Shown: positions 11,749-35,929 of the stretch, piece by piece
Layout: each line of letters opens with the position of its first letter
Position numbering within the stretch: position 1 is the stretch's first letter
Virus record (IMG/VR): IMGVR_UViG_3300029267_006021
DNA: 64,000 nt
Direction: 5' to 3' (one strand)
Source: a virus
Program-made: the position numbers and the translations under genes
The notes under the pieces: model-generated
What the model saw: only the letters and a program-made list of their open reading frames with translations
Database searches by the model: none
What the model was told of the DNA's origin: nothing

Positions 11749-12513
11749 TCAAATTTGGGACGTAGACCAAGACCATGTTTTTACATAGTCTTTCAATTGC
11801 TCAGCAGACATTCGACGAATTTTATAATACTCCTGCTCGTTTAACTTTGAAAGATTATTCTCAACGCTATTATAATGGCGAGGATGAGACAAATGATATA
11901 AATGTCCAGAAGTCCTTATAATTTTAAAACCTAATTTTTTAAAACGTATCAAACGTTCATTATCTTCATAACCCCAAGATCTAAAATTCTCATTCTCCAT
12001 CCCGCCTTGGTAAAAAGCCTTTTTGCTCCAAAAAAAGGCTCCTCCAACAGCACGTGGATTAGTACAATGACATTGACCATCCCTAATTGAATTTAAACTA
12101 AGTTCCGCTCGAATCGTAGGATGAAACTTTTCAGGAACATCTAAGCATCTGCCAGCATAAGGTAAAACACCTGAAGACTGTCCTGACACAAGAGAACCTA
12201 CTGCTTCTGTATACTGACGAAGAGGAAGTAAAATATCAGCATCATAATTAACGATAATGGGAGTCTGTGAAAGTTTTGCCAAATTATTTAAAATTCTAGT
12301 ACGATGAAACCATTTATTTTCAGAAGGGAAGTGATAAACTTTACAATTCTTACCAAAATCTTCTAAGGTAAATATTGGAGATTCTTCTCCAATTAAAATA
12401 TTAGTCTTAAAATATTTCTGAAGATAGTCTACAACAAGATCTAAACAAGATCTTCGCTTTGGCGAATCAACACGAATTGGAATAGTAAACGTTGTATTAC
12501 TTAAATCAATCAT
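11749..12513 (-). CDS. Glycosyltransferase, GT2/GT7-C (galactosyltransferase-like)
   Basis: NYDAD DxD motif; GGMENENFRSWGYEDNE; LYHLSH. Confidence 0.85.
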   Translation of the reverse strand: MIDLSNTTFTIPIRVDSPKRRSCLDLVVDYLQKYFKTNILIGEESPIFTLEDFGKNCKVYHFPSENKWFHRTRILNNLAKLSQTPIIVNYDADILLPLRQYTEAVGSLVSGQSSGVLPYAGRCLDVPEKFHPTIRAELSLNSIRDGQCHCTNPRAVGGAFFWSKKAFYQGGMENENFRSWGYEDNERLIRFKKLGFKIIRTSGHLYHLSHPRHYNSVENNLSKLNEQEYYKIRRMSAEQLKDYVKTWSWSTSQI

Positions 12514-13511
12514 TTCGTCTCTAAAAATTTCTCAACAAAAGATAAAATAATCTTTGAAGGGGGCTCCTCAGATAGATAAAATGACTGGTCTCTAACTGGA
12601 GCCGAAGATAATAACCAAGAAGAATCTGTTATTGAAAATTGACATCTCTTAGCAAAATTAAATACAAAGGTATCTTGCCACTCCGCCAAAGAACGAAAAA
12701 CTAAAGTAGACTTTCCAAAAAAAGGAGAGATCTTCTGCAGACTACCAGAATCCGTTAAAACAAAGGAACACCTAGAAAGATAATCAATCATCTGGGTATA
12801 AGAACAAGGCTCCAATTTCTGGATATTACTCGGCAAACTCATTTTTCGAACTAAACTATCAATACGATGGTGCACGAAAAACTTTATTGGAATTAAAATA
12901 CGGCTACAAAATTGAATAATTTTTTCTAGCTGTTTAATATTACAATTCTCTTGACGATGTATTGTCATTACGCCAAACTCTTCAAAACTAATTTTTGGAT
13001 CAAGTTTATTCAAATATTCATACTCAAGGTCCCCACAAAAAATACCATTGGATACTTGTTTTAGTGCCCTCTCAGAGGAACAAAATTTTAAGGAAGAAAC
13101 GCTATCAACAAAAAGACGATTAATTTCTTCAGGCACTAAGGAATCTCCACATCTTTCCCCTGCCTCTATATGAGCAACAGGTATACCTCTTTTATAAGAA
13201 GCGAGTGCGGCACAAAAAGTAGAATTTGTATCACCAAAAGTCATAACAATATTTGGATTCATTAAAGACAAAAAAGTATTGATCTTTAAAAGACATTCAG
13301 ATATAAAATTCAATTCAGAATAATTTGTTAAATCTAACGTAAAATCGATCTCTAAACCTAAATCTTTAATAATCTGAGAAGAAACATTCGGAGAAAAATG
13401 TTGATAAGTGTCTACAATCTGATGATCGACTCTTAATCTTTTACATAGATCATAAAACGGCTTAATTTTTATATATTGGGGTCGGGTTCCTATAATACTT
13501 AAAATTTTCAT
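12510..13511 (-). CDS. wecB: UDP-N-acetylglucosamine 2-epimerase family protein (WecB/WbpI-like)
   Basis: GTRPQYIK, GDTNST, HIEAG, PEEINR, TIHR and TDSG motifs; RPQ is more WbpI/WlbD-like than the RPE of WecB. Confidence 0.85.
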   Translation of the reverse strand: MKILSIIGTRPQYIKIKPFYDLCKRLRVDHQIVDTYQHFSPNVSSQIIKDLGLEIDFTLDLTNYSELNFISECLLKINTFLSLMNPNIVMTFGDTNSTFCAALASYKRGIPVAHIEAGERCGDSLVPEEINRLFVDSVSSLKFCSSERALKQVSNGIFCGDLEYEYLNKLDPKISFEEFGVMTIHRQENCNIKQLEKIIQFCSRILIPIKFFVHHRIDSLVRKMSLPSNIQKLEPCSYTQMIDYLSRCSFVLTDSGSLQKISPFFGKSTLVFRSLAEWQDTFVFNFAKRCQFSITDSSWLLSSAPVRDQSFYLSEEPPSKIILSFVEKFLETK

Positions 13512-14623
13512 TTTTCTAAAGCTTTCTTTACAGAATCAACAACATAATTAACTTCAGTATCTGATAACTTTGGATATAAAGGAAGAGATATTGTAGATGC
13601 CCCAATTCGTTCAGTCTCCGGAAAAGCTTCTTCTTTTTGTTGGAATAAATCTCTAAATTTACGCAACAAATGTAAAGGCTCATAATTAATAGTAAAGCCT
13701 ATACCAAAAGATCTAAGATTTTCCATTATCTTCTCTCGCTTATTTGGGTCAACCCAAATTGTTGAAAGATGATAACCGCTCTGAGAATTTGGATAAATTT
13801 TTGGCATTATTGTTGAAAAATGTTTATGATATTCAATATCAATTTCTTTTCGTCTTCTCCAATGTTTTTCAATTTTAGACATCTGAGGCAAAAGTAAAGC
13901 GGCTTGTATATTTGACATGTTATATTTCCACCCTAATTCAACTAAATCCCAATGACTAATTTTATGAGCATATCTTAAAGAAACTTCCTTATCAATCCCA
14001 TGCGTGTGTAAAAGTCGGACTTTATCTATTATATCTGAACGATTAGATATAAGAGATCCTCCCTCACCACAAGTTAAACTCTTCGTTGCATAAAAACTAA
14101 AACAAGATGCATCACTCAATTCACCTACCCTGATCCCATCACGTGAGGCTTCTAAAGCATGAGCTGCATCTTCTATGACAATTAAATTATAATTATCAGC
14201 AATTTTTCGAATTGCTCTCATATCACACATCTGTCCATACAAATGAACAGGCAAAATAGCTTTTGTTTTAGGAGTAATCGCTGCTTCAATTAAATTTGCA
14301 TCGAGATTTCCAGTATCTCTTTCAACATCAACCCAAACAGGCTTTGCCCCAATATGTACTAAAATTAGAGAAGTAGCAACAAAGGTTAAAGGCGTTGTTA
14401 TAACCTCATCTCCTTCTTTAATACCTGCAGCTAAAAGAGCCAAATGAAGAGCCCCAGTACAATGAGATAGACCAACGCAGTAGTCTACAGATAAATAATT
14501 GGCGAACTCTTGCTCAAATTGTGTAACCAAAGAACCTGTTGTTAAAAATTCCGAATCTAAAGCAGAACAAACAGATTCTTTTTCTTCTATATCTAAATTG
14601 TGTTTAAAAAATTCTACTTTCAA
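13508..14623 (-). CDS. DegT/DnrJ/EryC1/StrS sugar aminotransferase
   Basis: PVHLYG, EDAAHA, SFYATKSLTCGEGG (PLP lysine). Confidence 0.92.
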   Translation of the reverse strand: MKVEFFKHNLDIEEKESVCSALDSEFLTTGSLVTQFEQEFANYLSVDYCVGLSHCTGALHLALLAAGIKEGDEVITTPLTFVATSLILVHIGAKPVWVDVERDTGNLDANLIEAAITPKTKAILPVHLYGQMCDMRAIRKIADNYNLIVIEDAAHALEASRDGIRVGELSDASCFSFYATKSLTCGEGGSLISNRSDIIDKVRLLHTHGIDKEVSLRYAHKISHWDLVELGWKYNMSNIQAALLLPQMSKIEKHWRRRKEIDIEYHKHFSTIMPKIYPNSQSGYHLSTIWVDPNKREKIMENLRSFGIGFTINYEPLHLLRKFRDLFQQKEEAFPETERIGASTISLPLYPKLSDTEVNYVVDSVKKALEK

Positions 14624-15648
14624 TGGAGAATTACCTTTCCATCTGGGAGTTTAATAGGAACCTCACGCATCCATCTTAGAGGTTCCCACCATTCACGGTT
14701 TGCCGCATACCATTTAATTGTTTTTTGCAAACCTTCTTTAAATGGAGTCTTTGCCTTCCAGGACCATTGCTTAAAAACTTTTTCAGTGGAAGCAATATGC
14801 CTAGTTACCTGTCCTGGACGATCATAAATGTACTCGATTAAATCTGAAGATTTTTCTAAGGACGATAAAATAAAATTGGCAATAAAGTTCAAATCATAAT
14901 CTTTACCTGAACCTGCATTAAAACATTGGCCAAATAAATTTTCACTTGATCTTAGGATAGTATCCAAAATTTCACAATGGTCATGAACAAAAATCCAATC
15001 TCGTGAAGCTGTCCCGTCTCCGTGGATTTTCAAAGGCTCGTTTAAAAGAGCGTTCGTTATGAAACGAGGTATTACTTTTTCCAAATGCTGGTTTGGGCCA
15101 TAATTATTAAAAGGTCTAACAATAATGGCAGGTATATTATAAGTCTTCCAATAAGAATAAACTAATCTATCAGCTCCGGCTTTTGCACTAGCATATGGGC
15201 TCATAGGTAAAAGTGGATGTTCTTCAGTCATCGGATCTTCTACCGCTGTACCGTAAACTTCTGACGTTGAAATATGTATAAACTTTTTTACTTTTGGATT
15301 TTTTAAAATAGCGCTACAAAGCGTTTGTGTTCCTAGAACATCTGTCTCAAAAAAGATACGATTATCAAAGATAGAGCGAGCAACATGACTTTCAGCAGCA
15401 AAATGAACGATGTAGTCAGAACGATCTACTAATGGGTTAACAATCTCAGGATTACAAATATTTCCATACCAAAACTCAAAACGATCAGAATCTAAAAGAG
15501 ATTTACTAAAATTCTGGAGATTACCTGCATAAGTCAAAAGATCTAGAACTATCAAACGGCATTGAGGATATTTATTAAAAAGAAACTTTACAAAATTGCT
15601 TCCAATAAATCCTGCCCCACCTGTAATTAAAATAGTAATCTGATCCAT
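14620..15648 (-). CDS. rfbB: dTDP-glucose 4,6-dehydratase-like extended SDR
   Basis: GGAGFIG, DLLTYAGN, HFAAESHV, STSEVYG, YASAK, NNYGPNQHLEK; start at 15648 with GGAGG RBS. Confidence 0.85.
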   Translation of the reverse strand: MDQITILITGGAGFIGSNFVKFLFNKYPQCRLIVLDLLTYAGNLQNFSKSLLDSDRFEFWYGNICNPEIVNPLVDRSDYIVHFAAESHVARSIFDNRIFFETDVLGTQTLCSAILKNPKVKKFIHISTSEVYGTAVEDPMTEEHPLLPMSPYASAKAGADRLVYSYWKTYNIPAIIVRPFNNYGPNQHLEKVIPRFITNALLNEPLKIHGDGTASRDWIFVHDHCEILDTILRSSENLFGQCFNAGSGKDYDLNFIANFILSSLEKSSDLIEYIYDRPGQVTRHIASTEKVFKQWSWKAKTPFKEGLQKTIKWYAANREWWEPLRWMREVPIKLPDGKVILH

Positions 15649-16568
15649 CAGTCCCTCCAAACAGCTATACCAAAACCTGACGCCCCATAACCATTCCCAT
15701 TATATAAAAGATATTTTCTAGAATCATGTTTAAAAACACAAGGGAAACAAACTGATTCTGAATCCCAACCATCTGCAGAAATACTCAAGCCAATAAATTT
15801 ATCTTTTCGTTGCCAACTTAAACCATCCAAAGACTCGGCATAACCTATTCGAAATGTTTGAGCTTCTTTTGAAGCACGATAAGAGTACCACATTTTATAG
15901 AGATTATCTTCTTTTAGAACACATGGACGGCCTATAGAATACTCAATATTGGAATTGAAATCTATACAAATATGTCCAGACCTTTCCCACTCAAGCCCAT
16001 CAGAAGATTCTGCATATTTAATATGATAATAATGTTTAGGCTTATTATGCTCGACTACCCATTTAACTCCAGAACTATACCACATTCGAAAATAATTGTC
16101 TTCTTGGAGGACCCAACAAGTCCCGGCTAAAAATGGATCAATTTTATTACGACCTAAAATAGGAGATTTGGAGAGGCGAGAAAAGATAGATTCATCATTT
16201 TGGTTTGCTGCTACACCAAGAAAAGAGTACATTGGAACTGTTTTTCCTAAACTCCAACCAACATAATATAGGTATTTAACGCCACCAAAACTTAAAATCT
16301 GACAAGGAAAAAGACCGCTATCATCAAAAGTCCCTAAATCTCCTAAACTTAAAACAGGCCTCTGATCAACATCAATAATAACTTGTTTATTTAGATTAAA
16401 TTTTAAACGCCCAATTTGAGACCTATTTAAGGCATCTCGAGCAGCAAAATAAATATGGAAAAGATCTGTCCCAATATGCTCAACGCAGGGCATTGCAGCA
16501 TGCGAGCAAAGCCAATCCAAATTTGCATCTTTTGGATTAAAAATTAACCCTTTTTTAAGCCATGGCAT
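15648..16568 (-). CDS. Five-bladed beta-propeller glycosidase-like protein (GH32/43/130-like)
   Basis: Repeated YAESxDGLxW and P-x-V blade motifs; typical of sugar-nucleotide loci. Confidence 0.7.
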   Translation of the reverse strand: MPWLKKGLIFNPKDANLDWLCSHAAMPCVEHIGTDLFHIYFAARDALNRSQIGRLKFNLNKQVIIDVDQRPVLSLGDLGTFDDSGLFPCQILSFGGVKYLYYVGWSLGKTVPMYSFLGVAANQNDESIFSRLSKSPILGRNKIDPFLAGTCWVLQEDNYFRMWYSSGVKWVVEHNKPKHYYHIKYAESSDGLEWERSGHICIDFNSNIEYSIGRPCVLKEDNLYKMWYSYRASKEAQTFRIGYAESLDGLSWQRKDKFIGLSISADGWDSESVCFPCVFKHDSRKYLLYNGNGYGASGFGIAVWRD

Positions 16569-17292
16569 TTCTTTTTGCCTGAATTAAAATACTAGTACAA
16601 AGTTCTGGATAATGGATTCCCTCTTTAAAAAGACCTGTTATGATCGAATTTGATAAATTCAAAGACTCAATTTGTTTAGTTGCAAAGGGCTTTAAATAAA
16701 TCCCCTCAACTGAATTAACATAATAACCACAAGCAGACACTAAAGAATTTAAAGAATTAACTGAAAAAAGGCGCTTATGTCCTACAGAAAGATCTGCTTC
16801 ACTTAAATCAGACAAATTTTTAATAAGCCCGGCATGTAAACCTAAACGCTTATTTAAAGCCTCAAAATTAGGAACAATAATAAATAAAGAACCGTCAGGC
16901 ACTAAATGCTTTCTAAATCTCTTTAATATAACTTCAGGATCTTGTACATGCTCTAAAATAAAACCCATCATAATAACATCAAAATAATCACTTGATTCAT
17001 ACTCCTCAAAAAGAGTATGAATTATCTTAGTATCTCCAATGGCTTTCTCTTTAAATTTATCAATTGCTTTTTTTGATCCCTCTATAATAACATGTTTAGA
17101 AAAATGTTTAGAGAATTTTAAAGAAGAGTCTCCATAACCAATACCTAATTCTAATACTGATAATTCTTCGGGGTTCTTTAACTGTGTTATAATTCTATCT
17201 GTGTACCAGTTTATAACTAATTTGGTTTCATCAGCATAAGGAAATGCTTCATAATTTGTATAGAAAGCATCAAGACTATCAAATAAAGACAT
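16555..17292 (-). CDS. Class I SAM-dependent methyltransferase
   Basis: VLELGIGYG, FILEHV, IIVPN. Confidence 0.85.
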   Translation of the reverse strand: MSLFDSLDAFYTNYEAFPYADETKLVINWYTDRIITQLKNPEELSVLELGIGYGDSSLKFSKHFSKHVIIEGSKKAIDKFKEKAIGDTKIIHTLFEEYESSDYFDVIMMGFILEHVQDPEVILKRFRKHLVPDGSLFIIVPNFEALNKRLGLHAGLIKNLSDLSEADLSVGHKRLFSVNSLNSLVSACGYYVNSVEGIYLKPFATKQIESLNLSNSIITGLFKEGIHYPELCTSILIQAKRNAMA

Positions 17293-17319
17293 AACAAACC
17301 TCTATTTTATTTTTACTAC

Positions 17320-17985
17320 CTAAAGCTTCATAAATCTACTAAATTGTTCTGAATCTAAACGAAAAGGTTTTGTGGGTTCCGTAACAAACACTTGTTTATC
17401 TGTTGTATCATTTAAAATAACTGTTTGTGAGCCAATAATGCATTCGTTTCCTATTTTTAAAGCATTACGAATGAAAGAATTGCCTCCTATAAAACAATTA
17501 TTTCCAATTTTGACATCTCCGCAAACAACAACATGTGACGAGAAAAAACAAAAATTTCCGATCTCAACATCATGGCCAAAATGACAACCGCTCCAAATAA
17601 CTGTGCCGACTCCAATCTGCATAAAAGGTTGTAAATTATTATCTTCTAGAATAAAAGAATTTTCTCCAATTTGAGTATCTCCCCAATGAGTTGCTTTTGA
17701 ACTCAGATATTTTGCAAACTTATATCCTTTTTCCTTTGCTTCAAGATATTTTGATTCACGTATAGAATTCAACTTTGAATAACCAATCGCTACAAACATC
17801 TCAAAAGATGAAGGTGGGGCATACCTCTCAATTTCGTCGAAAGGGATAACAGGTAGACCACAAAAATGACTTTCTTGTGGTTGGTCCTCTGTGAAACAAG
17901 TAATCGCATAAGAAGAATCTTTGATAAAATAAAAATGAGCTAATTGCGCAAATTTAGAAGTACCAAAAATAATAAGATTAGGCAT
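17320..17985 (-). CDS. NeuD/PglD/VioB-family sugar acetyltransferase
   Basis: N-terminal Rossmann-like part (FVAIGY...R) followed by hexapeptide repeats with GHD. Confidence 0.85.
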   Translation of the reverse strand: MPNLIIFGTSKFAQLAHFYFIKDSSYAITCFTEDQPQESHFCGLPVIPFDEIERYAPPSSFEMFVAIGYSKLNSIRESKYLEAKEKGYKFAKYLSSKATHWGDTQIGENSFILEDNNLQPFMQIGVGTVIWSGCHFGHDVEIGNFCFFSSHVVVCGDVKIGNNCFIGGNSFIRNALKIGNECIIGSQTVILNDTTDKQVFVTEPTKPFRLDSEQFSRFMKL

Positions 17986-17997: not shown

Positions 17998-18714
17998 CTA
18001 TAGTCTGAGACCCCCGTCTACCTGCAAAATTCGACCATTAAAAAAAGCATTTTCAATAATAAATATAAAACCTTTAATGATCTCTTCTTCAGTAGCTAAA
18101 CGTTTTAAAGGAGTCTGTTTAATCCATTTTTTCTGTAAATCTATAGGCATTTTACTTGTAATGCCTGAATCTACAAATCCTGGAGCAATCCCAGCAACTC
18201 GAATCTTGAAATTGGATAACTCTTTAGCCCATGTTAAAGTTAAGGATTCAACTGCGGCTTTCGAAGCGCTATAAGCAGATTGTCCGGAGTTTCCTAAGGA
18301 AGCGATAGAACTAACATTAATAATTAAACCCTTAACTCGATTCTGGACCATTTTCAGGACAACTTCACGAGTAACATAAAAAAGCCCATTTAAATTAACA
18401 TCGAAAACTTCATGCCATTCATCTATTGGGTGAGATATCAAACCTGATTCCGAAAAACCAACTAAAAGATGATCCTGTGTGACTGCCGCATTATTAATTA
18501 GAATGTCAACTGGATCAAGATCTTTTAAAGAATGATAAACATTTATTGCTTGGGAGACATTACACTTAATAAAATTATCAAAGGTAGCGGAATTATTTTC
18601 AACCAAATCTAAAACCGTGATTTGAGCTCCACGTTTCTTTAATTCTATAGCAAGAGATAAACCAATACCCGAAGATCCTCCTGTAATCAAAATATGTTTG
18701 TTAAGTAGAGCCAT
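17998..18714 (-). CDS. FabG-like short-chain dehydrogenase (3-oxoacyl-ACP reductase-like)
   Basis: TGGSSGIG, NNAA, YSASK, APGF, VDGG. Confidence 0.85.
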   Translation of the reverse strand: MALLNKHILITGGSSGIGLSLAIELKKRGAQITVLDLVENNSATFDNFIKCNVSQAINVYHSLKDLDPVDILINNAAVTQDHLLVGFSESGLISHPIDEWHEVFDVNLNGLFYVTREVVLKMVQNRVKGLIINVSSIASLGNSGQSAYSASKAAVESLTLTWAKELSNFKIRVAGIAPGFVDSGITSKMPIDLQKKWIKQTPLKRLATEEEIIKGFIFIIENAFFNGRILQVDGGLRL

Positions 18715-18717
18715 TCA

Positions 18718-18951
18718 CTAAAAACCCTTCTTCTTTAAGACTTCAAGTATCTTCAAAAAGCTCTTCATTTCAATAATATCAGCAACTTCTAAAGTTATTC
18801 CAAATTCACTCTCAATAGTACTCATAATTTCTAAATGCCGCATTGAGTCCCAACTAGGAGTTTTTTGTAAAGAAACAGATTCATCAACTTGATCTGCGGA
18901 TAAATCAAAAATATCAGACAAAATTTTCTTGATTTGTTCTTCTAACATCAA
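18718..18951 (-). CDS. Acyl carrier protein
   Basis: 77 aa, acidic; WDSMRHL phosphopantetheine-serine motif; IESEFGI. Confidence 0.88.
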   Translation of the reverse strand: MMLEEQIKKILSDIFDLSADQVDESVSLQKTPSWDSMRHLEIMSTIESEFGITLEVADIIEMKSFLKILEVLKKKGF

Positions 18952-20525
18952 ATGCTCTCCAAAAAATTAGATTTAAAATAATCTACAAGAAGACGATAAA
19001 GAATTTTTTGAGTAGGTCCCTTTGGGATCTCCGATAAATCCGACAGCGTGTTGATTATAATTACTTCTTTCGGGCACTTAAAATAAGCAAGGTAATCAGC
19101 GCAAAACCCAATAATTGTCTTTTTATCAAGTGAACTATTTATAGTTAATTTTACAAACGCACAAAGTTCTTGTCCAAGTATGGGATCAGGTATACCAATC
19201 ACTGCACAATCTGCAATTTCTGGATGCTTAAGTAAAACATTTTCAGTCTCTGATGGATATATATTTTCTCCGCCTTTTATAATCAGAAAGTCATGTCTAC
19301 CCGCAAAATAAAAATAACCATCTTCTGTCTCATAACCATAGTCACCAGTATGGAACCACCCATTTCGAAAAGATTTTTCATTGAGGTCAGGCAAATTATA
19401 ATAGCCCCGTGTCACATTTAAACCACAAATACAAATCTCGCCAACTTCATTAAGAACAACATGGCCATTTTCATCTAAGACTTTCATTTCATTTATATTG
19501 AGAGGTCGCCCAACTGATCTCTTTCTTCGTTTTTCTGCTGGGTAATCATTAAAACATGAAAAAGATGTAGTTTCAGTTAAGCCAAAGCCTTCAAAAATTG
19601 GAACTCTAAAAGCGTCTTCAAACTTCTTTTGAATTTCTTCAGATAATGTTTGCCCCCCACAAATTATACCTTGTAAACTGCCCCTACGCTTTGATTTCTT
19701 CTCTCTTAATAAAACTGATAAAATAGAGGGCATTACACTTAACCAAGTACACTGATATTTTTCAACAATCTCCCAAAAAGACTTTAAGACCAAAACAGAC
19801 TCTACAAGAACTAAAGAACCTCCCACACTTAAAGGAGCAAGAAGAGTTACTACCTGCCCATTATTATGAAAAAGAGGTAGTATACATAAGGTCCTTGTCT
19901 CCTTATTAAATTGAAATTTCTCTGCAATAGCCTGGGCGTCATAAATTAGATTAGCTTGAGATAAGATCACACCTTTAGGGTTACCTGTAGTCCCTGAAGT
20001 ATAAATAATAACTGCATCATCCCAGAGAGAAGTCCTTAAAACATCCAAATTCTTCACTGAAAATAAATGTTCTGACGCAGAAAAGAGATTTAAATCAATA
20101 GAAATTTTCTTTATAGATAGAGTGTCAACTTTCGAGGATAACTCTTGTTTATAAAATAAAATCTTTGAATCACTATTGTTAGCAATAAAATCGATCTCTC
20201 GAGAAGATAATTTAGGATTAATTGGAACTACAATGATACCTGAAACAAGACAAGCAAAATATAATAACACGAATTCTTTACAATTATCGGCAAGTAAGCT
20301 AACATGATCTCCCTTTTTGAGTCCCATATTATGCTTTAAATAATAGCTTCCAGAAATCGCTGAGTAATATAATTCCTCAAAAGTCATTTGTGAATCAAAA
20401 AAGATTAAAGCTGTTCTAGAACCATAAAGAGTAGTCTGTTCTCTCAAGAGTTTATAAATATTAATATAACGAGGTGGGACCGCTTGAGAAAATTTAAGTT
20501 TCTGATGCTCTTCTAATTCAGCCAT
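18948..20525 (-). CDS. AMP-binding acyl-CoA/acyl-ACP synthetase (class I adenylate-forming enzyme)
   Basis: YTSGTTGNPKG, GFGLTET, WFHTGD, IKGGENIYPSE. Confidence 0.92.
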   Translation of the reverse strand: MAELEEHQKLKFSQAVPPRYINIYKLLREQTTLYGSRTALIFFDSQMTFEELYYSAISGSYYLKHNMGLKKGDHVSLLADNCKEFVLLYFACLVSGIIVVPINPKLSSREIDFIANNSDSKILFYKQELSSKVDTLSIKKISIDLNLFSASEHLFSVKNLDVLRTSLWDDAVIIYTSGTTGNPKGVILSQANLIYDAQAIAEKFQFNKETRTLCILPLFHNNGQVVTLLAPLSVGGSLVLVESVLVLKSFWEIVEKYQCTWLSVMPSILSVLLREKKSKRRGSLQGIICGGQTLSEEIQKKFEDAFRVPIFEGFGLTETTSFSCFNDYPAEKRRKRSVGRPLNINEMKVLDENGHVVLNEVGEICICGLNVTRGYYNLPDLNEKSFRNGWFHTGDYGYETEDGYFYFAGRHDFLIIKGGENIYPSETENVLLKHPEIADCAVIGIPDPILGQELCAFVKLTINSSLDKKTIIGFCADYLAYFKCPKEVIIINTLSDLSEIPKGPTQKILYRLLVDYFKSNFLESI

Positions 20526-29100: not shown

Positions 29101-29974
29101 TTTTAAAGGATCTCAAAGCAGAAACCAGAGCAATCGCAGGCTTTGCGTCATCAATACTGAAACCTTTACCTTCCAAAATTTCTTGATAGCATACAGTATG
29201 TAAAGGCTCTAGCCCTTTAGAAAGATCCAAAACATAGTCATCAATCATAAAAACTCGTCGAGCAAATTCGTCCTCTTCTAAATCTTTTGAATCAAGTGAT
29301 AAAGACCAGTTAACTTTTGCATGTTCTAAATCCAAAAAACCAGAAACCTTTGCAGGAGAATACTCTGAAATCAAATATGACTTAACAGACCCAAAAAACC
29401 AAAGTACAAGATCAAAAAGATGAATACCAATATTAGTTACTAAATCTCCAGATCTTATCGAGTCGCCTTTCCATGAAGTATGATACCAAGGACCTCTACG
29501 AGTAATATAATCAATTTTTACTATAGCGTGTTCTGAATTTGAAGACTCAATTATCTTTTTTAACTTTAATACTTCAGGATGATATCTCAATTGTAAGATC
29601 GCATAGATTCTTTTGTTAAAGCGTGCTTCTAGCTCTTGTAATGGGTCTAAGTTCCAGGGGTTAATAGTCAAAGGTTTCTCACAAATAGCGTTTGCTCCCA
29701 AACGCAAAGCTATCCGACAATGGGCATCATGCAAATAATTAGGAGTACAAATACTAATATAGTCTACACCTTCTCCTTTAAGACGGAGTTTTTCTAAATG
29801 TCTATCAAATCTCTCGATCTCAGTAAAAAAGCGAACATCAGAAAAGTAACTATCCAAAACACCTACAGAATCATGCGGATCACAAGCAGCAACCAAAGTA
29901 TGTCCAGTATCTTTAATTGCTTTTAAATGCCGAGGAGCAATATAACCAGCAGCTCCTAGTAAAGCAAATCTCAT
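29093..29974 (-). CDS. wbpB: Gfo/Idh/MocA oxidoreductase, UDP-GlcNAcA 3-dehydrogenase (WbpB/WlbA-like)
   Basis: FALLGAAGYIAPRHLKAIK, DSVG, PNYLHDAH, CEKP, SWKGD, TNIGIH match WbpB-type signatures. Confidence 0.88.
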   Translation of the reverse strand: MRFALLGAAGYIAPRHLKAIKDTGHTLVAACDPHDSVGVLDSYFSDVRFFTEIERFDRHLEKLRLKGEGVDYISICTPNYLHDAHCRIALRLGANAICEKPLTINPWNLDPLQELEARFNKRIYAILQLRYHPEVLKLKKIIESSNSEHAIVKIDYITRRGPWYHTSWKGDSIRSGDLVTNIGIHLFDLVLWFFGSVKSYLISEYSPAKVSGFLDLEHAKVNWSLSLDSKDLEEDEFARRVFMIDDYVLDLSKGLEPLHTVCYQEILEGKGFSIDDAKPAIALVSALRSFKND

Positions 29975-30537
29975 TTTTGGACAAGCTCTCCAGAAACAAG
30001 ATGATACTCTCTACCGCATAAGCAACGAACATTTGACGTTATTAAATTAAGAGAATTACCACATTTACAAACCCAACCTCTATCTATAGCCGGATTCCCA
30101 TAAAACAACTTAAAATTGGGGAGATCTTGAGTAACAACACTTCCAGCTCCAACAAATGAATATTTACCAATCTTACGGGGACAAATAATCGTTGAATTAG
30201 CACCTAAGGTTGCTCCCTTACTGATGACAGTTTTTTCATAATTTTTATTTTTGGGAAAACGGCTTCGAGGACGAAGAACATTTGTGAAAACTACACTTGG
30301 GCCACAAAAAACATCATCTTCCAAGAGAATTCCAGCAAAGATTGAAACATTATTTTGTATCTTACAATTATCCCCAATAATAACCTTCTCTCCTATAAAT
30401 ACATTTTGACCTAAAGTACAATTTGACCCAATTTTAACATCTCTAGAAATATGAGAAAAATGCCAAATCTTTGTATCTGAACCAATAGAGGTATTTGAAT
30501 CAATAATAGCCGAAGAATGCGTATAAAATTTAGGCAT
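29971..30537 (-). CDS. wbpD: Hexapeptide N-acetyltransferase (WbpD/WlbB-like)
   Basis: IWHFSHI, LGQNV, KIQNNVSI, FCGPSVVFTNVLRPRS, GWVCKCG; start at 30537. Confidence 0.88.
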   Translation of the reverse strand: MPKFYTHSSAIIDSNTSIGSDTKIWHFSHISRDVKIGSNCTLGQNVFIGEKVIIGDNCKIQNNVSIFAGILLEDDVFCGPSVVFTNVLRPRSRFPKNKNYEKTVISKGATLGANSTIICPRKIGKYSFVGAGSVVTQDLPNFKLFYGNPAIDRGWVCKCGNSLNLITSNVRCLCGREYHLVSGELVQK

Positions 30538-31645
30538 CAAAAAAATCCTTAATCGTTCTAACAACTTTATAAATTTGTCTTTCTGAGATGCCAGCAAACA
30601 AAGGTAAGGAAAGAACTTCTTGAGATACTCTTTCAGACTCAGGCAAACTACCTACACTATAAGTATAATTAGAAAAAATCTTTTGAAGATGTAAAGGTTG
30701 GGGATAATAAATTGCACAGCCTATCCCTTTTTCTCTCAAAAATTGAATTAAAGCAGGGCGTTTCTGAACCCTAATAGTAAAAAGAGCCCAAGATGACTTA
30801 AGATAATCTTCTGGAAATTTAGGAAGAACTATCTTTTCATTTAAATTAAAAGAGGAAAAAATCTCCAAATATTTTTTAGCTGCTTGTTCTCGACGCTCTC
30901 TCCAAAGATCTACATAGTCTATTTTTATAGAAAGTAAGGCTGCTTGAAGGGCATCTAATCTAAAATTCCCTCCCATTTGACTAAAAGTAAGAGAACCAAT
31001 AGACCTTTGCTGTCTCATTGCTAAGATTTTCTCTAGCAATTCTAAAGAATTTACGCTAATGAGACCCCCATCTCCAAAACCCCCAAGAGGCTTGGTTGGG
31101 AAAAAACTAAAACAACCTAAAGAACCGAAGGTACCAACTTTTCTGTCATTGATTGTTGCCCCAAAAGCCTGTGCAGCATCTTCAATAATAAAGATATTAT
31201 GTCTATTGGAAATCTTTAAAATTTCTTCCAAATTAATAGGCAAACCATAAAGATGTACAGGAATAACTGCCTTTGTTTTGGAAGTAATTGCCGCTTCAAA
31301 ACTCTCAACAGAAATATTAAATGTTTCAGAATTTATATCTACAAAAACTGGTTTAGCTCCAACCCAACAAATCGCAGATGCTGTGGCAATAAAAGTAAAA
31401 GAGGGTAAAATAACTTCATCTCCGGGCCCAATACCTAGAGACTTTAGAGCAAGTATTAGAGCATCTGACCCGCTTGAAACACCTACTGTATGTTTAGAAC
31501 CTAAAAACTTAGAACATTTTGTCTCAAAATCAGTAACTTGGGCTCCCAATATAAATTGATTAGAACTCAAAATCTCTTGAAAAGATTCTGTTAAAGATGA
31601 AGTTAAAGGGGCATTTTGAAAAGATAAATCAAATAAAGGTATCAT
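30530..31645 (-). CDS. wbpE: DegT-family aminotransferase (WbpE/WlbC-like)
   Basis: EDAAQAFGA, SFFPTKPLGGFGDGG, NFRLDALQAA; adjacent to wbpB/wbpD-like genes. Confidence 0.82.
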   Translation of the reverse strand: MIPLFDLSFQNAPLTSSLTESFQEILSSNQFILGAQVTDFETKCSKFLGSKHTVGVSSGSDALILALKSLGIGPGDEVILPSFTFIATASAICWVGAKPVFVDINSETFNISVESFEAAITSKTKAVIPVHLYGLPINLEEILKISNRHNIFIIEDAAQAFGATINDRKVGTFGSLGCFSFFPTKPLGGFGDGGLISVNSLELLEKILAMRQQRSIGSLTFSQMGGNFRLDALQAALLSIKIDYVDLWRERREQAAKKYLEIFSSFNLNEKIVLPKFPEDYLKSSWALFTIRVQKRPALIQFLREKGIGCAIYYPQPLHLQKIFSNYTYSVGSLPESERVSQEVLSLPLFAGISERQIYKVVRTIKDFFDA

Positions 31646-32517
31646 TAACCGATCTCCAATTTATTTAACCTCTCATAGTCGAATCTTCTACCAATAATCT
31701 TATTATCTCTAAAAATCAAGTGATAAGGAGGATTCTTAACATAATTTTTTAAAATTAAAGGCACATCATAGGGAAATTGGATTAATTTCTTAGAGTATAA
31801 TTCCTTAATTAAATCGGAAGCATCCTTATGCAAAACTTCTTTAAGATAAGAAAGATGATCCAGATTAAGATGCATCTTCCTTCTAAAAAGTCTCCATTTT
31901 GAACGATGAACTCTATAAACAAAATGTAGATCAGATTTAACGTCTACTGAAATAAAATAATAACCAGCCATTTCAAATGTTTTACAACCCTTTTTCCAAA
32001 TACGTTCATCCCAACCATGTGTATTAGAAACAACAACTTTTTCTAAATAATCTTTATGAAACATCGCACAATTAAGAGGATGTATATGAGAAGTTTTCCA
32101 AGTTTGATTTAATAAAACTCTCATAACTGGAGTCTTACACATAAAGCGATGGTAACGATCAAACGCTTTATTCTTTTCTAAATAAAGTAATTGTTTTTGT
32201 AGACTATGCGGGGAAGTATCTTCAAAAGCAACAAAATCAGCATCCCATACAAATATAAAAGCATTAGAACATTTAGAAATAGCAAAATTGCGGAGATCTG
32301 CTAAATCAATAATCTTAGGTTCTTTAAATATTTTAAGATTTAAATTATGTTTTGATTTTAATTGTTCAACTTTTAAAACAGTCTTATCTGTAGAACCATT
32401 ATCTACAAAAATAATCTCATCGGCAATGTTAGCAATAGATAGGATACAGGGTTCAATCCAATAAATTTCATCTTTAGCAACGATATAAAAAGAGATGGGA
32501 GTCTTAAGATTGTCCAT
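31645..32517 (-). CDS. GT2 glycosyltransferase
   Basis: VDNGSTDKT, RNFA, VWDAD. Confidence 0.82.
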   Translation of the reverse strand: MDNLKTPISFYIVAKDEIYWIEPCILSIANIADEIIFVDNGSTDKTVLKVEQLKSKHNLNLKIFKEPKIIDLADLRNFAISKCSNAFIFVWDADFVAFEDTSPHSLQKQLLYLEKNKAFDRYHRFMCKTPVMRVLLNQTWKTSHIHPLNCAMFHKDYLEKVVVSNTHGWDERIWKKGCKTFEMAGYYFISVDVKSDLHFVYRVHRSKWRLFRRKMHLNLDHLSYLKEVLHKDASDLIKELYSKKLIQFPYDVPLILKNYVKNPPYHLIFRDNKIIGRRFDYERLNKLEIG

Positions 32518-33358
32518 AAAAATATTTCTCCCAATTAGTTTGTTCTTCTTCCATAGGCATCTCTCGAAACTGCGTATTCAAATTTTCTACGTCTATAAAT
32601 AAATCATAAGGCAAATCTCTTTTTGAACACCAAGACATGAAAGCTTTTAAATCCTTAGGCAAACACATACCAGAAAAACCTCGAAGACCATCTCGTCCAG
32701 GCGAAAAGGTATGCATTGGATGAATCCAACCATTTTGAACAGAGACTTCGCGAACTAAATTAAAATCAATTTGTAAGTTTTCACAGGCTAAACGTAATAA
32801 ATTAAAATAAGTATTCTTAACAGCATAAAAAACATTGCAAGCATATTTAATAATTTCAGACTCTTCATAGAGACAAGTAATTATTTTAGAACTCTCAATA
32901 GGTTTAGAAATCTTATTAATTAAACTCTCCCACTTTTTATAAGACGAAAAATCTTGAAAACCATAAATGATCTGAGGAGCTTTCAAAATATCTTTTTCAT
33001 CTCCCGTTACATTTAAAAACTCAGGAGAATGAGCAATATTCAAATTTAGGTAAGTTTCTGATAATCTTCTTGAAGTGCCTGGAACAACAGTACTCTTTAA
33101 AATGACCAAACCTAAAAAATTAAGAGTATTTAAAGAATGAAAAACTTGTTCTATATGCGAGGAGTCCTGGGAACCTGAGACCGTTGGAGTCGGAACGCAA
33201 ACAAATATAACAGAGCATTCAGATACTAAAGTCTCCAAAGAATTTTTACTTCGAGACCGATCAATATCATAAACTTTAGTTTGGAATTGGGCAATAGAAT
33301 AAAATCTATCAATTCTTTGACCTACAACACCATTTCCAATAATCCCGATCATTTCCAC
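32504..33358 (-). CDS. UDP-glucose/GDP-mannose dehydrogenase family protein (short phage-type form lacking the C-terminal domain)
   Basis: GNGVVG, CVPTP, KSTVVPG, PEFL, EIIKYACN, GFSGMCLPKD (catalytic Cys). Confidence 0.88.
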   Translation of the reverse strand: MEMIGIIGNGVVGQRIDRFYSIAQFQTKVYDIDRSRSKNSLETLVSECSVIFVCVPTPTVSGSQDSSHIEQVFHSLNTLNFLGLVILKSTVVPGTSRRLSETYLNLNIAHSPEFLNVTGDEKDILKAPQIIYGFQDFSSYKKWESLINKISKPIESSKIITCLYEESEIIKYACNVFYAVKNTYFNLLRLACENLQIDFNLVREVSVQNGWIHPMHTFSPGRDGLRGFSGMCLPKDLKAFMSWCSKRDLPYDLFIDVENLNTQFREMPMEEEQTNWEKYFYGQS

Positions 33359-33396
33359 AAAGCCTTAAAAGATCAAAACATTATAAGTGAAAAATT

Positions 33397-34203
33397 TCAA
33401 TCATTTTTGACTTCTTTAGCAACAATTCCATCCCCGTCAAGAGGGAGACAAGAAATATTTTTTCGATAATCAAAATCTCCCCTACTTGAAGTGTGTAATT
33501 TCCAGAGGTCATATTTACGATAAGCGTTATCTCCTTGTAAATGAGTAACCCAAGAATCTGAAGAACGAATCTGACCACTAACTAAACCAGAAGCGGCAAC
33601 TTTCATAACAAAACGGGCGTCCTCATGCCCATAAAGACGGTCTTCTGCAAATTTATGTTTTAACCAAAAAGATCTAGGTAAAGCGAGTGGTGCCCCATTA
33701 ACCACTGTAGTGTGTTCAAAAAGTAAGTCAGCATGAATAGGATTAATATGTCCTGCAGTGGCACTTTTTGGAACTTCAGGAGTTCCAAAAAGATTTCTAA
33801 CTTCTAAACAACAAGCCCCAAAACGTTCTCCGAAAAATTTATAAGATCCCCATAAAAAATAAAGCCAATCTTTGTAGACTAAAATATCATTATCTAATTT
33901 AATAAATAATTGACGAGAGCTCTTAGCGAGTATTTGATTAATTGCCCTACCAATACCTAAATTCTTTTTATTATCAATAATCTTAATTTGATGTTTAGAA
34001 CCTTCTTTTTTTCTTTGGGCAAAAAATTGATGCAATTTAGTAACTGTCCCATCCGTAGACCCATTATCAGATAGGATAATTTCAACACTAGGTGCTGTAT
34101 GCTTTAGAAGATTCTCAAGAGTAGCCTTTGTATATTTCCAACGATTAAAAGTGAGAATACCTATAGTAATTTGACTTCCATCATAAATTCTTTTTTTCAT
34201 CAT
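33397..34203 (-). CDS. GT2 glycosyltransferase (paralogue of 34204-35181)
   Basis: DNGSTD, KLDND, YGHED. Confidence 0.85.
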   Translation of the reverse strand: MMKKRIYDGSQITIGILTFNRWKYTKATLENLLKHTAPSVEIILSDNGSTDGTVTKLHQFFAQRKKEGSKHQIKIIDNKKNLGIGRAINQILAKSSRQLFIKLDNDILVYKDWLYFLWGSYKFFGERFGACCLEVRNLFGTPEVPKSATAGHINPIHADLLFEHTTVVNGAPLALPRSFWLKHKFAEDRLYGHEDARFVMKVAASGLVSGQIRSSDSWVTHLQGDNAYRKYDLWKLHTSSRGDFDYRKNISCLPLDGDGIVAKEVKND

Positions 34204-35181
34204 CTAAAACCACATTGTAAATATCTTTTTTAATTCTTCTCTTAAATCATTCCGAATCTCATTTTTTAGATCATCTAAAATATCTCTACGTAACTTTTTA
34301 TACAATTCGACACCTAATTCTTCTTTTATATCTTTTTTAATGAGAGTGATTAAAGTATTTTCAGAATCTTTAATTAAATTTGAAGCAGGCGCTTTATTCC
34401 CAAGCTGAATTTGATCTCCCTCAAGAGGCAAACACGAAACACCTGCTTCAAATTTAAAACTTCTCCCAATTTTTGCAACATGATTTTTCCATAGATCATA
34501 TTTTCGATAACGGTTGTCATGCTGAAGATGAGTTACCCAAGTAGTCGGTGAACGTAGTTGCCCACAAACTAAGCCTTTATTCCAGGCTTTTACAGCAAGT
34601 CGTGCGTCTTCATGTCCATAAAGACGATCCTCAGAAAACTTATGCCGCGACCAAAAAGATCGAGACATGGCCATTGTAGCTCCGTTTACAGCAGGAGTCC
34701 GTTCGAATAAAATCCCTCCCACTATTATCTCAGTTTTACCTTGAGTTCTTTTTCGTGACAGTCGAGAACGTCCATCAGTGTCACGAACTTCAAGACAGCA
34801 AACACCTAATCTATTTTTAAAATGTGCATAAACCAACCAAAGAAAATAAACCCATCTTCTACATACAAGAATATCATTATCTAATTTGATTAAAAGATCT
34901 CCTTTACTTTGACTAAAAGCTAAATTAACTGCACGACCTATCCCCAAATTCTTCTTATTTTCAATAATTTTGATATTGCGCTGCCCACTTTTCTTCTGGG
35001 CATTTTGTATATAAGTCTTCAATTTTTGGACCGTATTATCTGTAGAACCATTATCAATAATAATAATTTCAGTTTTTAAGGGAGTATGTTTGAATAAATG
35101 ATTAAGTGTGCGTTCGGTATATGGCCACCTATTAAATGTTGTCAGAGCAATCGAAATTTTATGTTCAGGATAACTCAACAT
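34204..35181 (-). CDS. GT2 glycosyltransferase with C-terminal helical tail
   Basis: DNGSTD, KLDND, YGHED. Confidence 0.85.
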   Translation of the reverse strand: MLSYPEHKISIALTTFNRWPYTERTLNHLFKHTPLKTEIIIIDNGSTDNTVQKLKTYIQNAQKKSGQRNIKIIENKKNLGIGRAVNLAFSQSKGDLLIKLDNDILVCRRWVYFLWLVYAHFKNRLGVCCLEVRDTDGRSRLSRKRTQGKTEIIVGGILFERTPAVNGATMAMSRSFWSRHKFSEDRLYGHEDARLAVKAWNKGLVCGQLRSPTTWVTHLQHDNRYRKYDLWKNHVAKIGRSFKFEAGVSCLPLEGDQIQLGNKAPASNLIKDSENTLITLIKKDIKEELGVELYKKLRRDILDDLKNEIRNDLREELKKIFTMWF

Positions 35182-35182
35182 G

Positions 35183-35929
35183 CTAAAAATCTCTTTTCAA
35201 AACTTCGAACTTTTCCTCAGGATCTTTTTGGTATAATTTAAATTTCTTGCTATGCGTGAAATCTGAAAAAATCTGAGAATTCTTCTCAGACCATCTGTTT
35301 TTATTCCTTTTAGGCATACCTCCGTTTACTGATAAAAACTCAAAAAAACGTTTTGGTTGGTGGAGAGTGTAATAAGGAACCCATTTATATAAACCAGCTT
35401 TACAAATACGATAAGTCCATTCACAATGCTCATAACCATAACCTTTAAATGCCGGGTTCAAATAACCCACTTTCTGTAGCACTTTTTGAGTAATAAAAAC
35501 AAATTGACCATTTAAATCTCCAGAACCATATAAAGGTATTCCTTTATATATCTTAGGTTTATAAGTTGCCAAACAACCATAATTAAAATGATGCAAACCT
35601 GTTTTTTTATGGGTATTTATAGTATATTGAAACAACTGAGGTTTCACCAATAAAATATCATCCTCAAAAAGAAAGATATATTCAAAGTTCTTGAGTACTT
35701 TTAAAAGTCTATTCTTATTTGCAGCGACTCCTTGGTTCTTAGCCAAAATCGAAACAATATCTTTTTGTTGTCTTAAAAAATTTTGGGTACCATCTGTGCA
35801 GCCATCAGAAGCAAATACAACGAGATATCCCTTTGTAAGATTAAATCTTCTTAAGGTTGCTAGAATAGATCGCACATTATTTAAACGGTTAAAACATGAA
35901 ATGCCAATGCCTATTGTTTTATTTCGCAT
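35183..35929 (-). CDS. GT2 glycosyltransferase
   Basis: SDGCTDGT, FEDD, VGYLNPAFKGYGYEH. Confidence 0.85.
   Translation of the reverse strand: MRNKTIGIGISCFNRLNNVRSILATLRRFNLTKGYLVVFASDGCTDGTQNFLRQQKDIVSILAKNQGVAANKNRLLKVLKNFEYIFLFEDDILLVKPQLFQYTINTHKKTGLHHFNYGCLATYKPKIYKGIPLYGSGDLNGQFVFITQKVLQKVGYLNPAFKGYGYEHCEWTYRICKAGLYKWVPYYTLHQPKRFFEFLSVNGGMPKRNKNRWSEKNSQIFSDFTHSKKFKLYQKDPEEKFEVLKRDF

Follow-up and report, generated by a model that had tools for sequence, protein, structure and literature searches.

A 26-gene glycan assembly operon in a phage related to Bacillus phage G, with the virion as its tentatively proposed destination

The DNA analysed here, referred to throughout as the window, is a stretch of 64,000 nucleotides from the IMG/VR virus record IMGVR_UViG_3300029267_006021, an 87.5-kb record estimated by CheckV to be 45% complete; a fuller assembly of the same phage, of 194,001 bp, is contig k141_632424 of ENA ERZ27256778. 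Nearly all window genes lie on the minus strand. The subject of this work is a cluster of genes for glycan synthesis at 11749-35929, located between Toprim/ATPase-like genes and a late glycosyltransferase (GT) operon. An initial annotation of the window had described a co-directional run of about 24 kb, and this was borne out, as the cluster consists of 26 genes, all on the minus strand, that overlap or are separated by gaps of no more than 38 nt. The enzyme classes it had named were likewise all recovered in place by Pfam and NCBIfam searches. From first to last, the genes are as follows.

35183-35929, minus strand: GT2-like glycosyltransferase (weak), first cluster gene; Pfam Glycos_transf_2 E 7.9e-5, NCBIfam EpsD-like 3e-9
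34204-35181, minus strand: GT2 glycosyltransferase; Pfam E 3e-24
33397-34203, minus strand: GT2 glycosyltransferase; Pfam E 7e-21
32504-33358, minus strand: short (284 aa) nucleoside diphosphate (NDP)-sugar 6-dehydrogenase-like protein, candidate for the WbpA role; UDPG_MGDP_dh_N and central domain only
31645-32517, minus strand: GT2 glycosyltransferase; Pfam E 2.9e-14
30530-31645, minus strand: DegT-family sugar 3-aminotransferase (WbpE/QdtB-like); Pfam E 1e-108, PDB QdtB 1e-84, WbpE 9e-68
29971-30597, minus strand: WlbB/WbpD-type N-acetyltransferase; PDB 3mqg E 1.3e-55
29093-29974, minus strand: WbpB-type NDP-sugar 3-dehydrogenase; PDB 3o9z 4e-83, 3oa2 2e-78
26371-29100, minus strand: 909-aa enzyme with GT2, GT-A and QueC-like PP-loop parts; Pfam, AlphaFold2 (AF2), Foldseek, VIA
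25631-26386, minus strand: class I S-adenosylmethionine (SAM) methyltransferase; Pfam Methyltransf_23/11
25084-25653, minus strand: Methyltransf_24/TylF-like O-methyltransferase; Pfam E 2.9e-15
23978-25081, minus strand: GT-B glycosyltransferase (GT1/GT4 type); Pfam Glycos_transf_1, with a 40% identical homologue in the phage genome G021
23100-23975, minus strand: radical SAM/SPASM enzyme; Pfam, NCBIfam
22508-23119, minus strand: class I SAM methyltransferase; Pfam
21750-22511, minus strand: WbqC-family protein (O-antigen-associated); Pfam E 2.7e-67
20518-21753, minus strand: class I/II pyridoxal-phosphate aminotransferase; Pfam E 2.4e-29
18948-20525, minus strand: AMP-forming acyl ligase; Pfam AMP-binding E 1e-83, NCBIfam fatty-acid ligase-like
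18718-18951, minus strand: acyl carrier protein (ACP), 77 aa; NCBIfam ACP 2e-6, PP-binding (weak) on the orthologue
17998-18714, minus strand: FabG-like 3-oxoacyl-ACP reductase; NCBIfam E 8e-67
17320-17985, minus strand: NeuD/PglD/VioB-family amino-sugar N-acyltransferase; TIGR03570 167.5 bits, above cut-off; PDB PglD, LpxD
16555-17292, minus strand: class I SAM methyltransferase; Pfam
15648-16568, minus strand: GH130-like protein (weak), possibly of phosphorylase or glycosyl-transfer fold; Pfam 3.5e-5, below cut-off; NCBIfam 4e-10
14620-15660, minus strand: dTDP-glucose 4,6-dehydratase-like short-chain dehydrogenase/reductase; TIGR01181 E 1.6e-102, 343 bits, just below the 365-bit cut-off
13508-14623, minus strand: DegT-family C4 aminotransferase; Pfam 1.8e-113, PDB ArnB and perosamine synthetase ~1e-62
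12510-13511, minus strand: Epimerase_2 (WecB/WbpI-like NDP-sugar 2-epimerase); Pfam 8.7e-49, TIGR00236 154 bits against a 210-bit cut-off
11749-12513, minus strand: GT-A glycosyltransferase (Glyco_transf_7C match), last cluster gene; Pfam 4.5e-8, 75% identical in a diverged relative

Seven of these genes encode GTs, with eight GT domains between them (five GT2, one GT-B and one Glyco_transf_7C-type GT-A); four encode SAM methyltransferases, two DegT aminotransferases, one a class I/II aminotransferase and two hexapeptide N-acyltransferases. The remaining genes provide an RmlB-like 4,6-dehydratase, a GFO/IDH/MocA dehydrogenase, the short NDP-sugar dehydrogenase, Epimerase_2 and the FabG-like reductase, together with the ACP of 77 aa, the AMP-forming ligase, the radical SAM/SPASM enzyme, the WbqC-family protein and the weakly matched GH130-like protein. 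For the WbqC-family protein there was no PDB relative and nothing specific was returned by Pfam, NCBIfam or PDB. In the relative, the first gene is fused to the next GT in an open reading frame (ORF) of 595 aa, whose N-terminal part is 70% identical to the window protein. We propose that the cluster is an operon of the phage whose enzymes form a complete assembly line for a glycan in the cytoplasm, and our preferred, though tentative, reading is that its product is placed on proteins of the virion.

Since the window encodes a major capsid protein and, in addition, a prohead protease, we assign its DNA to a phage related to Bacillus phage G.

55294-56217, minus strand: major capsid protein, phage-G type, 307 aa; phrog_2522 1e-48

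The capsid protein is 77% identical to that of LR745208.1 (a 485-kb uncultured phage), 52% to that of a 308-kb Tunturiibacter phage and 37% to that of Bacillus phage G. Its relatives occur on 243 IMG/VR stretches, some of which are complete genomes of up to 437 kb.

A trivial explanation for the cluster would be that bacterial DNA was mis-joined to a phage contig through an assembly artefact or host contamination. The slightly lower GC content of the cluster (0.31-0.345, against 0.35-0.38 in the flanks) and the lack within it of a phage motif described below would fit such an origin. Against it, the junction between the Toprim/ATPase genes and the first GT is the same in two samples, ENA ERZ27256778 (the 194,001-bp assembly) and Logan SRR14699969, and the identical 909-aa protein is found on eight contigs, six of them of 50-200 kb, the junction being seen in the two places just given. 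Furthermore, a diverged relative, L191 (Logan SRR29278615, 28.4 kb), shares the full set of 26 genes, their order and the phage genes on either side. The shared strand and tight packing of the genes also argue against mis-joining, as does the fact that bacterial homologues never exceed ~57% identity; this is the best bacterial identity of WbpB, whose 532 bacterial hits are spread over many phyla. On account of the shared junctions across samples, the conserved order in the relative and the ~57% ceiling, we consider both chimerism and recent capture to be excluded, and the chance of an artefact to be negligible. The integrity of the contig, which had been flagged for confirmation, thus holds.

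Between the window and the SRR29278615 relative, amino-acid identity is 45-75% in the cluster (mean ~63%) and 39-51% in the flanks (mean ~45%). For every cluster gene where it could be computed, the ratio of nonsynonymous to synonymous substitution rates (dN/dS) is 0.09-0.34, although these values are rough because synonymous sites are saturated. In our reading of these sequences the cluster is a long-resident, selected part of the phage genome and not a recent capture from bacteria. Its distribution is narrow. The DegT gene is missing from 15 of 18 large relatives, and the two cluster proteins sought in LR745208.1 had no homologue there. Megablast of the cluster and its right flank against 50,697 phage records gave no match, and no relatives came from single-protein scans of IMG/VR that used the 909-aa GT, RmlB or the flank ATPase as query; the scan with WbpB found 18 viral contigs, each sharing at most four cluster genes. 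The missing DegT and LR745208.1 homologues mark the cluster as an accessory island of one sub-lineage.

The gene content points to two nucleotide-sugar branches. In the first, the short NDP-sugar dehydrogenase, the WbpB 3-dehydrogenase, the WbpE/QdtB 3-aminotransferase, the WlbB/WbpD N-acetyltransferase and Epimerase_2 would act together, and should yield the nucleotide of a 2,3-diacetamido-2,3-dideoxy-hexuronic acid, of the UDP-GlcNAc3NAcA/ManNAc3NAcA type. The WbpB (29093), WbpE/QdtB-like (30530) and WlbB/WbpD-type (29971) genes are adjacent in the cluster, and bacterial genes of these three types were found together in 35-40 of 80 loci examined. The aminotransferase of gene 30530 matches QdtB (1e-84) better than WbpE (9e-68), which leaves its substrate uncertain. 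In the short dehydrogenase, TIGR03026 covers model positions 57-298 of 413 and the C-terminal UDP-binding domain is lacking. This form is kept in three phage glycan loci, namely the window (284 aa), L191 at 3291-4136 (281 aa) and L203 at 1760-2677 (305 aa), with a dN/dS of 0.29 between two of them. Because the short form is conserved in the relative and in L203, a third phage-like contig, we treat it as putatively functional; it might represent a separate phage variant of the enzyme.

In the second branch, the RmlB-like 4,6-dehydratase (14620), the C4 DegT aminotransferase (13508) and the PglD/VioB-like N-acyltransferase (17320) should yield an N-acylated 4-amino-4,6-dideoxyhexose. The AMP-ligase, the FabG-like reductase and the class I/II aminotransferase would assemble an unusual acyl group on the ACP of 77 aa. 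LpxA/LpxD-type relatives of the N-acyltransferase use acyl-ACP, and the acyl module probably supplies the adjacent PglD/LpxD-like enzyme with its donor. As no sugar-1-phosphate nucleotidyltransferase is encoded in the 87.5-kb record, we believe that the host supplies dTDP-glucose and UDP-GlcNAc. The eight soluble GT domains would then join the sugars into a chain, to be tailored by the four methyltransferases and the radical SAM enzyme.

Parts of this inventory would also suit another cytoplasmic or released product, such as a glycolipid, a glycosylated small molecule or peptide, or a glycosylated host protein. The ACP, AMP-ligase, FabG, class I/II aminotransferase, radical SAM/SPASM enzyme and four methyltransferases resemble natural-product tailoring, the GT2 at 31645 weakly matches the SunS peptide S-glycosyltransferase (E 1e-4, far below cut-off), and a secondary-metabolite role has been proposed for a second cyanophage cluster (PMC7824862). 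However, with eight GT domains and two full nucleotide-sugar branches an oligo- or polysaccharide is the product to be expected, no polyketide or non-ribosomal peptide synthetase, precursor peptide or exporter was seen, and the acyl module is more simply explained as an N-acylation donor system for the adjacent PglD/LpxD-like transferase. We therefore regard such a product as improbable.

The 909-aa enzyme at 26371-29100 is composed of a GT2 module (residues 1-200), a second GT-A domain (~225-500) and a QueC-like PP-loop ATPase (~495-909). Residues 200-909 belong to no Pfam family, and before folding nothing specific was found for them in Pfam, NCBIfam or PDB searches; HMMER against 1.8 billion representatives gave 646 homologues, most of which are separate proteins of ~260 or ~405 aa. 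AF2 models of both parts have a pLDDT (predicted local confidence) of 93. The middle part has a GT-A fold, with the chondroitin polymerase K4CP, SpsA and TarS/TarP as the top Foldseek matches. The C-terminal part gave a VIA Z of 14.3 to Cap9 (root-mean-square deviation 2.4, 166 aligned) and of 13.9 to QueC, from which we place it in the QueC-like PP-loop ATPase fold together with QueC, Cap9 and QatC, a statement of fold membership only. Its loop, in the position of the SGGxDS-type loop of such enzymes, reads NGMGKDG, with both Gly residues invariant and N, K and D present in at least 90% of sequences, and four Cys residues are also invariant.

In a 73-kb phage-like contig, and likewise in three complete phages bounded by terminal repeats (96.7, 261 and 99 kb), the GT-A and PP-loop parts are encoded side by side, accompanied by different subsets of cluster genes; a search for the phage-G capsid protein in these three phages gave no match. 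The pair is thus a mobile module, found repeatedly in viral and phage-like contigs. Further homologues lie in all-soluble glycan loci with many sulfotransferases, a deacetylase and a radical SAM enzyme. Sulfotransferases likewise accompany PP-loop homologues in L203 and L233, and the phage itself encodes one (Sulfotransfer_1/3; L201 1-716, k141_632424 ~15.1-15.8 kb). Sulfation of a glycan or of protein may belong to the same theme as the glycan cluster.

The 909-aa enzyme probably couples sugar transfer to the ATP-dependent activation of a carboxylate, giving an amide. Amidation of the uronic acid by the PP-loop domain was our first idea, and it was weakened by G021, in which the GT-A/PP-loop pair occurs with the deoxy-amino-sugar branch and no uronic branch; for this reason we do not narrow the substrate to a uronic acid. 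As a speculation to which we give little weight, GT-A/PP-loop enzymes might be a phage-specific means of anchoring or polymerising glycans without a lipid carrier, in which a carboxylate of a uronic acid or a protein is adenylated and passed as an amide to an amino sugar or protein amine, giving an amide-linked, acylated and methylated virion coat by a chemistry related to Cap9/QatC conjugation.

A system that exports its glycan would be expected to reveal itself by membrane proteins. We sought these by a crude Kyte-Doolittle hydropathy scan for hydrophobic 19-mers and by family searches, with precomputed Pfam lists for the added loci; together with the 87.5-kb record these covered assembly positions 15,088-147,613, or 68% of the 194,001 bp. 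In the 87.5-kb record no ORF has more than two hydrophobic 19-mers, and the case with two segments is the soluble AMP-ligase. Bac_transf (PF02397), Glycos_transf_4 (PF00953) and Polysacc_synt (PF01943) were missing from this record and from the related genomes G021-G023, with positive controls. No priming or export family and no multi-transmembrane ORF was found in the covered sequence, including the added 45 kb, and there was no indication there of Wzy, WaaL or ABC-2, judged indirectly through the hydropathy scan. In G021 and G023, which are complete and carry parts of the cluster, no ORF has four or more hydrophobic segments. The claim that the system has no membrane or export component is therefore upheld within this scope. 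Because no primer transferase, flippase, polymerase, ligase or ATP-binding cassette (ABC) permease was found, we believe that the glycan is most likely built directly on a cytoplasmic acceptor.

An acceptor in the cytoplasm could also be the phage DNA, with the glycan carried on a modified base. The pathway is cytoplasmic and would need no export, and phage GTs can put several sugars on DNA (Pyle et al. 2024, as cited in PMC12619734). Assembly positions 15,088-147,613 contain replication genes, two TnpB genes, the sulfotransferase and a queD-queE-folE-QueC cluster. The latter (L200 910-5656, k141_632424 ~25.8-30.5 kb) comprises PTPS (QueD), a radical SAM enzyme (QueE-like), HAD, GCHY-1 (FolE2), a second radical SAM enzyme and QueC, and adjoins a Toprim (primase-like) gene and dnaN; the DNA of this phage probably carries 7-deazaguanine modification. 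That the phage already has such a pathway (PTPS, two radical SAM enzymes, GCHY-1 and QueC) argues against a second modification by the glycan, and no thymidylate-synthase-like hydroxymethylase (PF00303) was present in the 87.5-kb record or in the Pfam lists of the added loci. Known DNA glycans consist of a single simple hexose or a few of them and are far less elaborate than an amino-uronic glycan with acyl and methyl groups that needs 26 genes. We consider DNA as the acceptor very unlikely.

Virion proteins are the acceptor that we favour, and three GTs outside the cluster, which had been noted previously (4953, 7371 and 59373) and are substantiated by Pfam and phrog matches, bear on this choice.

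4953-5828, minus strand: GT with Glyco_trans_1_2 and DUF3880, last gene of the run from 9848 to 4953; Pfam 2.2e-18 and 5.4e-6
7371-9848, minus strand: 825-aa GT with GT2 and Glyco_tranf_2_5 domains, downstream of the late motif; Pfam
10044-10056, minus strand: copy of the phage-specific motif ATANTNNACTAAT; exact match
59373-60389, minus strand: head-operon GT, flanked by the genes of a 203-aa protein and of the prohead protease; phrog_7162 'glycosyltransferase' E 8.5e-32

The Glyco_trans_1_2 and DUF3880 pair is presumably the architecture of the CgeB/YkvP spore-protein GTs. The head-operon GT had no Pfam hit and nothing specific in NCBIfam or PDB. All three are in operons behind the late motif ATANTNNACTAAT, of which there are nine exact copies against 0.37 expected; the others are at 3462, 10854, 10893 (plus strand), 40327, 57693, 57750, 59364 and 63846, and none lies within 11.7-35.9 kb. 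Copies stand ahead of the protease and head genes, and one in the relative ends 34 nt before the start of the orthologue of the 825-aa GT. L191 also has an exact copy on the coding strand at 1367-1379, inside the fused first GT gene and near the GT1/GT2 junction; as none is present at the orthologous window site, this copy was set aside as evidence on timing.

In the head operon (window 59373-61009 against 5035-6701 of L004, the closest relative), the GT is 47% and the adjacent 203-aa protein (60398-61009) 46% identical, whereas the capsid protein is 95% and the next gene 86% identical. Divergence of the GT and its neighbour is the pattern expected for a diversifying surface feature. We propose, as our best guess, that head decoration or fibre proteins are the acceptors and that the GTs of the late structural operons prime them. 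The pointers to the virion are circumstantial: an all-soluble system, three GTs behind the late motif, the presumed CgeB domain pair of one of these GTs, and a diverged GT and neighbour in the head operon.

Several observations count against a virion glycan. Within the cluster the only motif copy on the coding strand has one mismatch and lies within a gene, and ahead of the cluster come Toprim and HATPase-like genes and a sigma-70-like site at 38913-38885; the lack of a late motif and these neighbours suggest that it is expressed early or in the middle of infection, not as a structural operon. A Ser/Thr-rich tail or repeat was sought in the head proteins by composition and none stands out, and the 202-aa protein encoded upstream of the capsid gene (56217-56825) has only 20% Ser+Thr. 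The families in NCBIfam nearest to the GT2 enzymes mostly act on lipid-linked acceptors in bacteria, and the GTs of bacterial O-antigen synthesis are soluble too. A single candidate membrane protein was found in any related locus: in G022 (IMGVR_UViG_3300033153_013547, complete, 261 kb) a 318-aa ORF at 87987-88943, directly upstream of WbpD- and WbpB-like genes, has five hydrophobic segments; it belongs to no Pfam family, and an Atlas search was uninformative. Lastly, comparable phage clusters have been read by their authors as modifying the host surface (PMC1079782, PMC7824862, PMC7029224).

This last view could apply here also. The repeat unit or polymer would be assembled on host undecaprenyl-(pyro)phosphate and exported by a host flippase or ABC transporter together with a ligase, and the resulting change of O-antigen, capsule or teichuronic-type polymer could keep out superinfecting phages or prevent the adsorption of progeny to debris. 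Besides the closest phage precedents and the multi-transmembrane ORF within the G022 locus, this explanation draws on the nearest named GT2 families, which are exopolysaccharide, teichuronic-acid and colanic-acid GTs, on the WbpB/D/E triad, which is common as a bacterial polysaccharide module, and on the apparent expression of the cluster with non-structural genes and its lack of the late motif. In addition, the priming enzymes and ligases of bacterial O-antigen synthesis are often encoded outside the O-antigen locus. Against it, neither a primer transferase nor Wzx, Wzy or an ABC permease turned up in the 87.5-kb record, in the 68% of the genome covered or in the complete G021 and G023. As Wzx and Wzy favour their cognate units, they would export a foreign product of 26 genes poorly. 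Moreover, the phage is apparently lytic, and spending 24 kb on a soon-lysed cell calls for a particular rationale; the parts examined showed no integrase, although no search was aimed at integrases. We rate remodelling of the host envelope as a serious contender, but doubtful.

Our preference for the virion remains a guarded one. With respect to the initial annotation, which had proposed a phage-built glycan on the virion, the phage origin, the soluble pathway and the lack of priming and export genes in the sequence covered all stand; the virion as acceptor did not find the same support, and the cluster has no late motif. A claim that such a phage cluster is unique would be too strong, as large ones have been published (PMC1079782, PMC7824862, PMC7029224). 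Lytic phages with large glycan clusters, mycobacteriophages with virion glycans and giant viruses with autonomous glycan clusters (PMC10117803) were already known. The novelty lies in the phage-G-type lineage, in a single operon of this size and completeness that has been conserved under selection between diverged relatives, in the short dehydrogenase, and in the GT-GT-QueC-like fusion with the recurring gene pair.

If the glycan is on the virion, virus-made complex coats of bacterial type, so far known from a few actinophages and from giant eukaryotic viruses only, would also occur in large environmental phages, where they would bear on adsorption, on recognition by immune systems or grazers and on particle stability. 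If it is on the host, the cluster would be among the largest surface-remodelling programmes of a lytic phage. Either way it offers testable enzymes, namely the short NDP-sugar dehydrogenase, which is conserved, and the GT-A/PP-loop pair, which is uncharacterised, falls in no Pfam family and has hundreds of homologues, and two diverged orthologous clusters are good material for heterologous reconstitution.

Elsewhere the window carries signs of mobile DNA. An IS200/IS605-type pair lies at 44046-45626, in which the Y1 transposase TnpA (44046-44447, minus strand, Pfam Y1_Tnp E 1.8e-33) is divergent from a TnpB-like gene (44499-45626, plus strand, phrog_506 E 2.8e-50). At 52266-55128, two large homing-endonuclease-like genes, one HNH (396 aa) and one LAGLIDADG plus HNH (553 aa), come immediately downstream of the capsid gene; they are missing from the corresponding position in L004. 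A 458-aa protein at 81-1457 has an intein splicing domain (Pfam E 4.2e-15, residues 227-350). The GC content is 0.45-0.51 at 48000-52000 and 56000-58000, against ~0.35 elsewhere; the first of these stretches, which has only short ORFs (91-260 aa), including one at 50204-50986 with weak P-loop/APS-kinase-like matches, may be a foreign island. Neither the Rfam nor the tRNA scan of the window gave a match.

The question of how the cluster relates to known systems is best approached from its bacterial counterparts. Like O-antigen and capsule loci, it groups genes for nucleotide-sugar synthesis with several GTs; unlike those that depend on Wzx/Wzy or ABC transporters, it has no initiating phosphoglycosyl transferase or polytopic membrane protein in the 68% of the genome covered. 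The UDP-ManNAc3NAcA pathways of Pseudomonas aeruginosa (WbpA/B/E/D/I) and Bordetella (WlbA/C/B) share with it the adjacent WbpB, WbpE-like and WlbB genes in their usual order, and the dehydrogenase and Epimerase_2 in the same operon. In contrast to them, the dehydrogenase here has 284 aa and no C-terminal domain, the epimerase scores under the WecB cut-off and there is no Wzx/Wzy context. In contrast to the systems that glycosylate phage DNA, no enzyme for a hydroxymethylated or other acceptor base was found in the 68% of the genome covered, and the only modification genes seen are of the 7-deazaguanine type.

Among systems that decorate protein shells, the glycan of the spore crust is made in the cytoplasm of the mother cell, where soluble enzymes assemble it on the shell protein itself. 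SpsA is among the GT-A enzymes that the second GT-A domain of the 909-aa enzyme resembles, but the analogy is one of logic only, as no orthology beyond Pfam domains was found. In Bacillus subtilis, CgeB has been reported to glycosylate CgeA of the crust (PMC13577073). In mycobacteriophages, soluble phage GTs are reported to place glycans on capsid and tail-tube subunits (Freeman et al. 2023, as cited in PMC12619734). The three GTs in late structural operons are reminiscent of this, although the 24-kb cluster itself lacks the late motif. Composition, a poor guide to glycosylated C-terminal segments of the mycobacteriophage type, shows no Ser/Thr-rich tail on the capsid protein or its neighbours. 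Those phages reportedly use few GTs and host sugars only, whereas here the genes predict two dedicated nucleotide-sugar branches with acyl and methyl tailoring.

The closest phage precedents are cyanophage P-SSM2 with its 24 'LPS' (lipopolysaccharide) genes (PMC1079782), jumbo cyanophages with a 15-gene cluster (PMC7824862) and pelagimyophages with GT-rich hypervariable islands and a host recognition cluster (PMC7029224). They share with the present phage a large lytic lifestyle and a variable multi-gene locus with epimerases, dehydrogenases, methyltransferases and several GT families, for which the acceptor was never shown. They differ in being T4-like, with the locus in the hypervariable tail-fibre region, while here the capsid protein is of phage-G type and a single operon of 26 genes keeps its order between diverged relatives; their authors favour modification of the host O-antigen.

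The Megavirinae (Mimivirus, Moumouvirus, Tupanvirus) have fibril clusters of 9 to 33 genes, reaching 49 kb in Tupanvirus, with clade-specific content (PMC10117803). As in our phage, these viruses encode rare amino-sugar pathways (in their case for viosamine, by a 4,6-dehydratase, an aminotransferase and an N-acetyltransferase) and methylation, and have clustered GT2-type and multidomain GTs, no membrane or export step and a lineage-specific presence (PMC10117803). They are eukaryotic giant viruses whose glycans have been shown chemically on the fibrils (PMC10117803), whereas ours is a tailed phage with the virion as a proposed acceptor. The phage chemistry also stands apart in its diacetamido-uronic branch, ACP-borne acyl group and PP-loop fusion. 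As our best guess, a glycan on the virion of this phage would be the counterpart of the giant-virus fibril, mycobacteriophage capsid and Bacillus spore-crust glycans.

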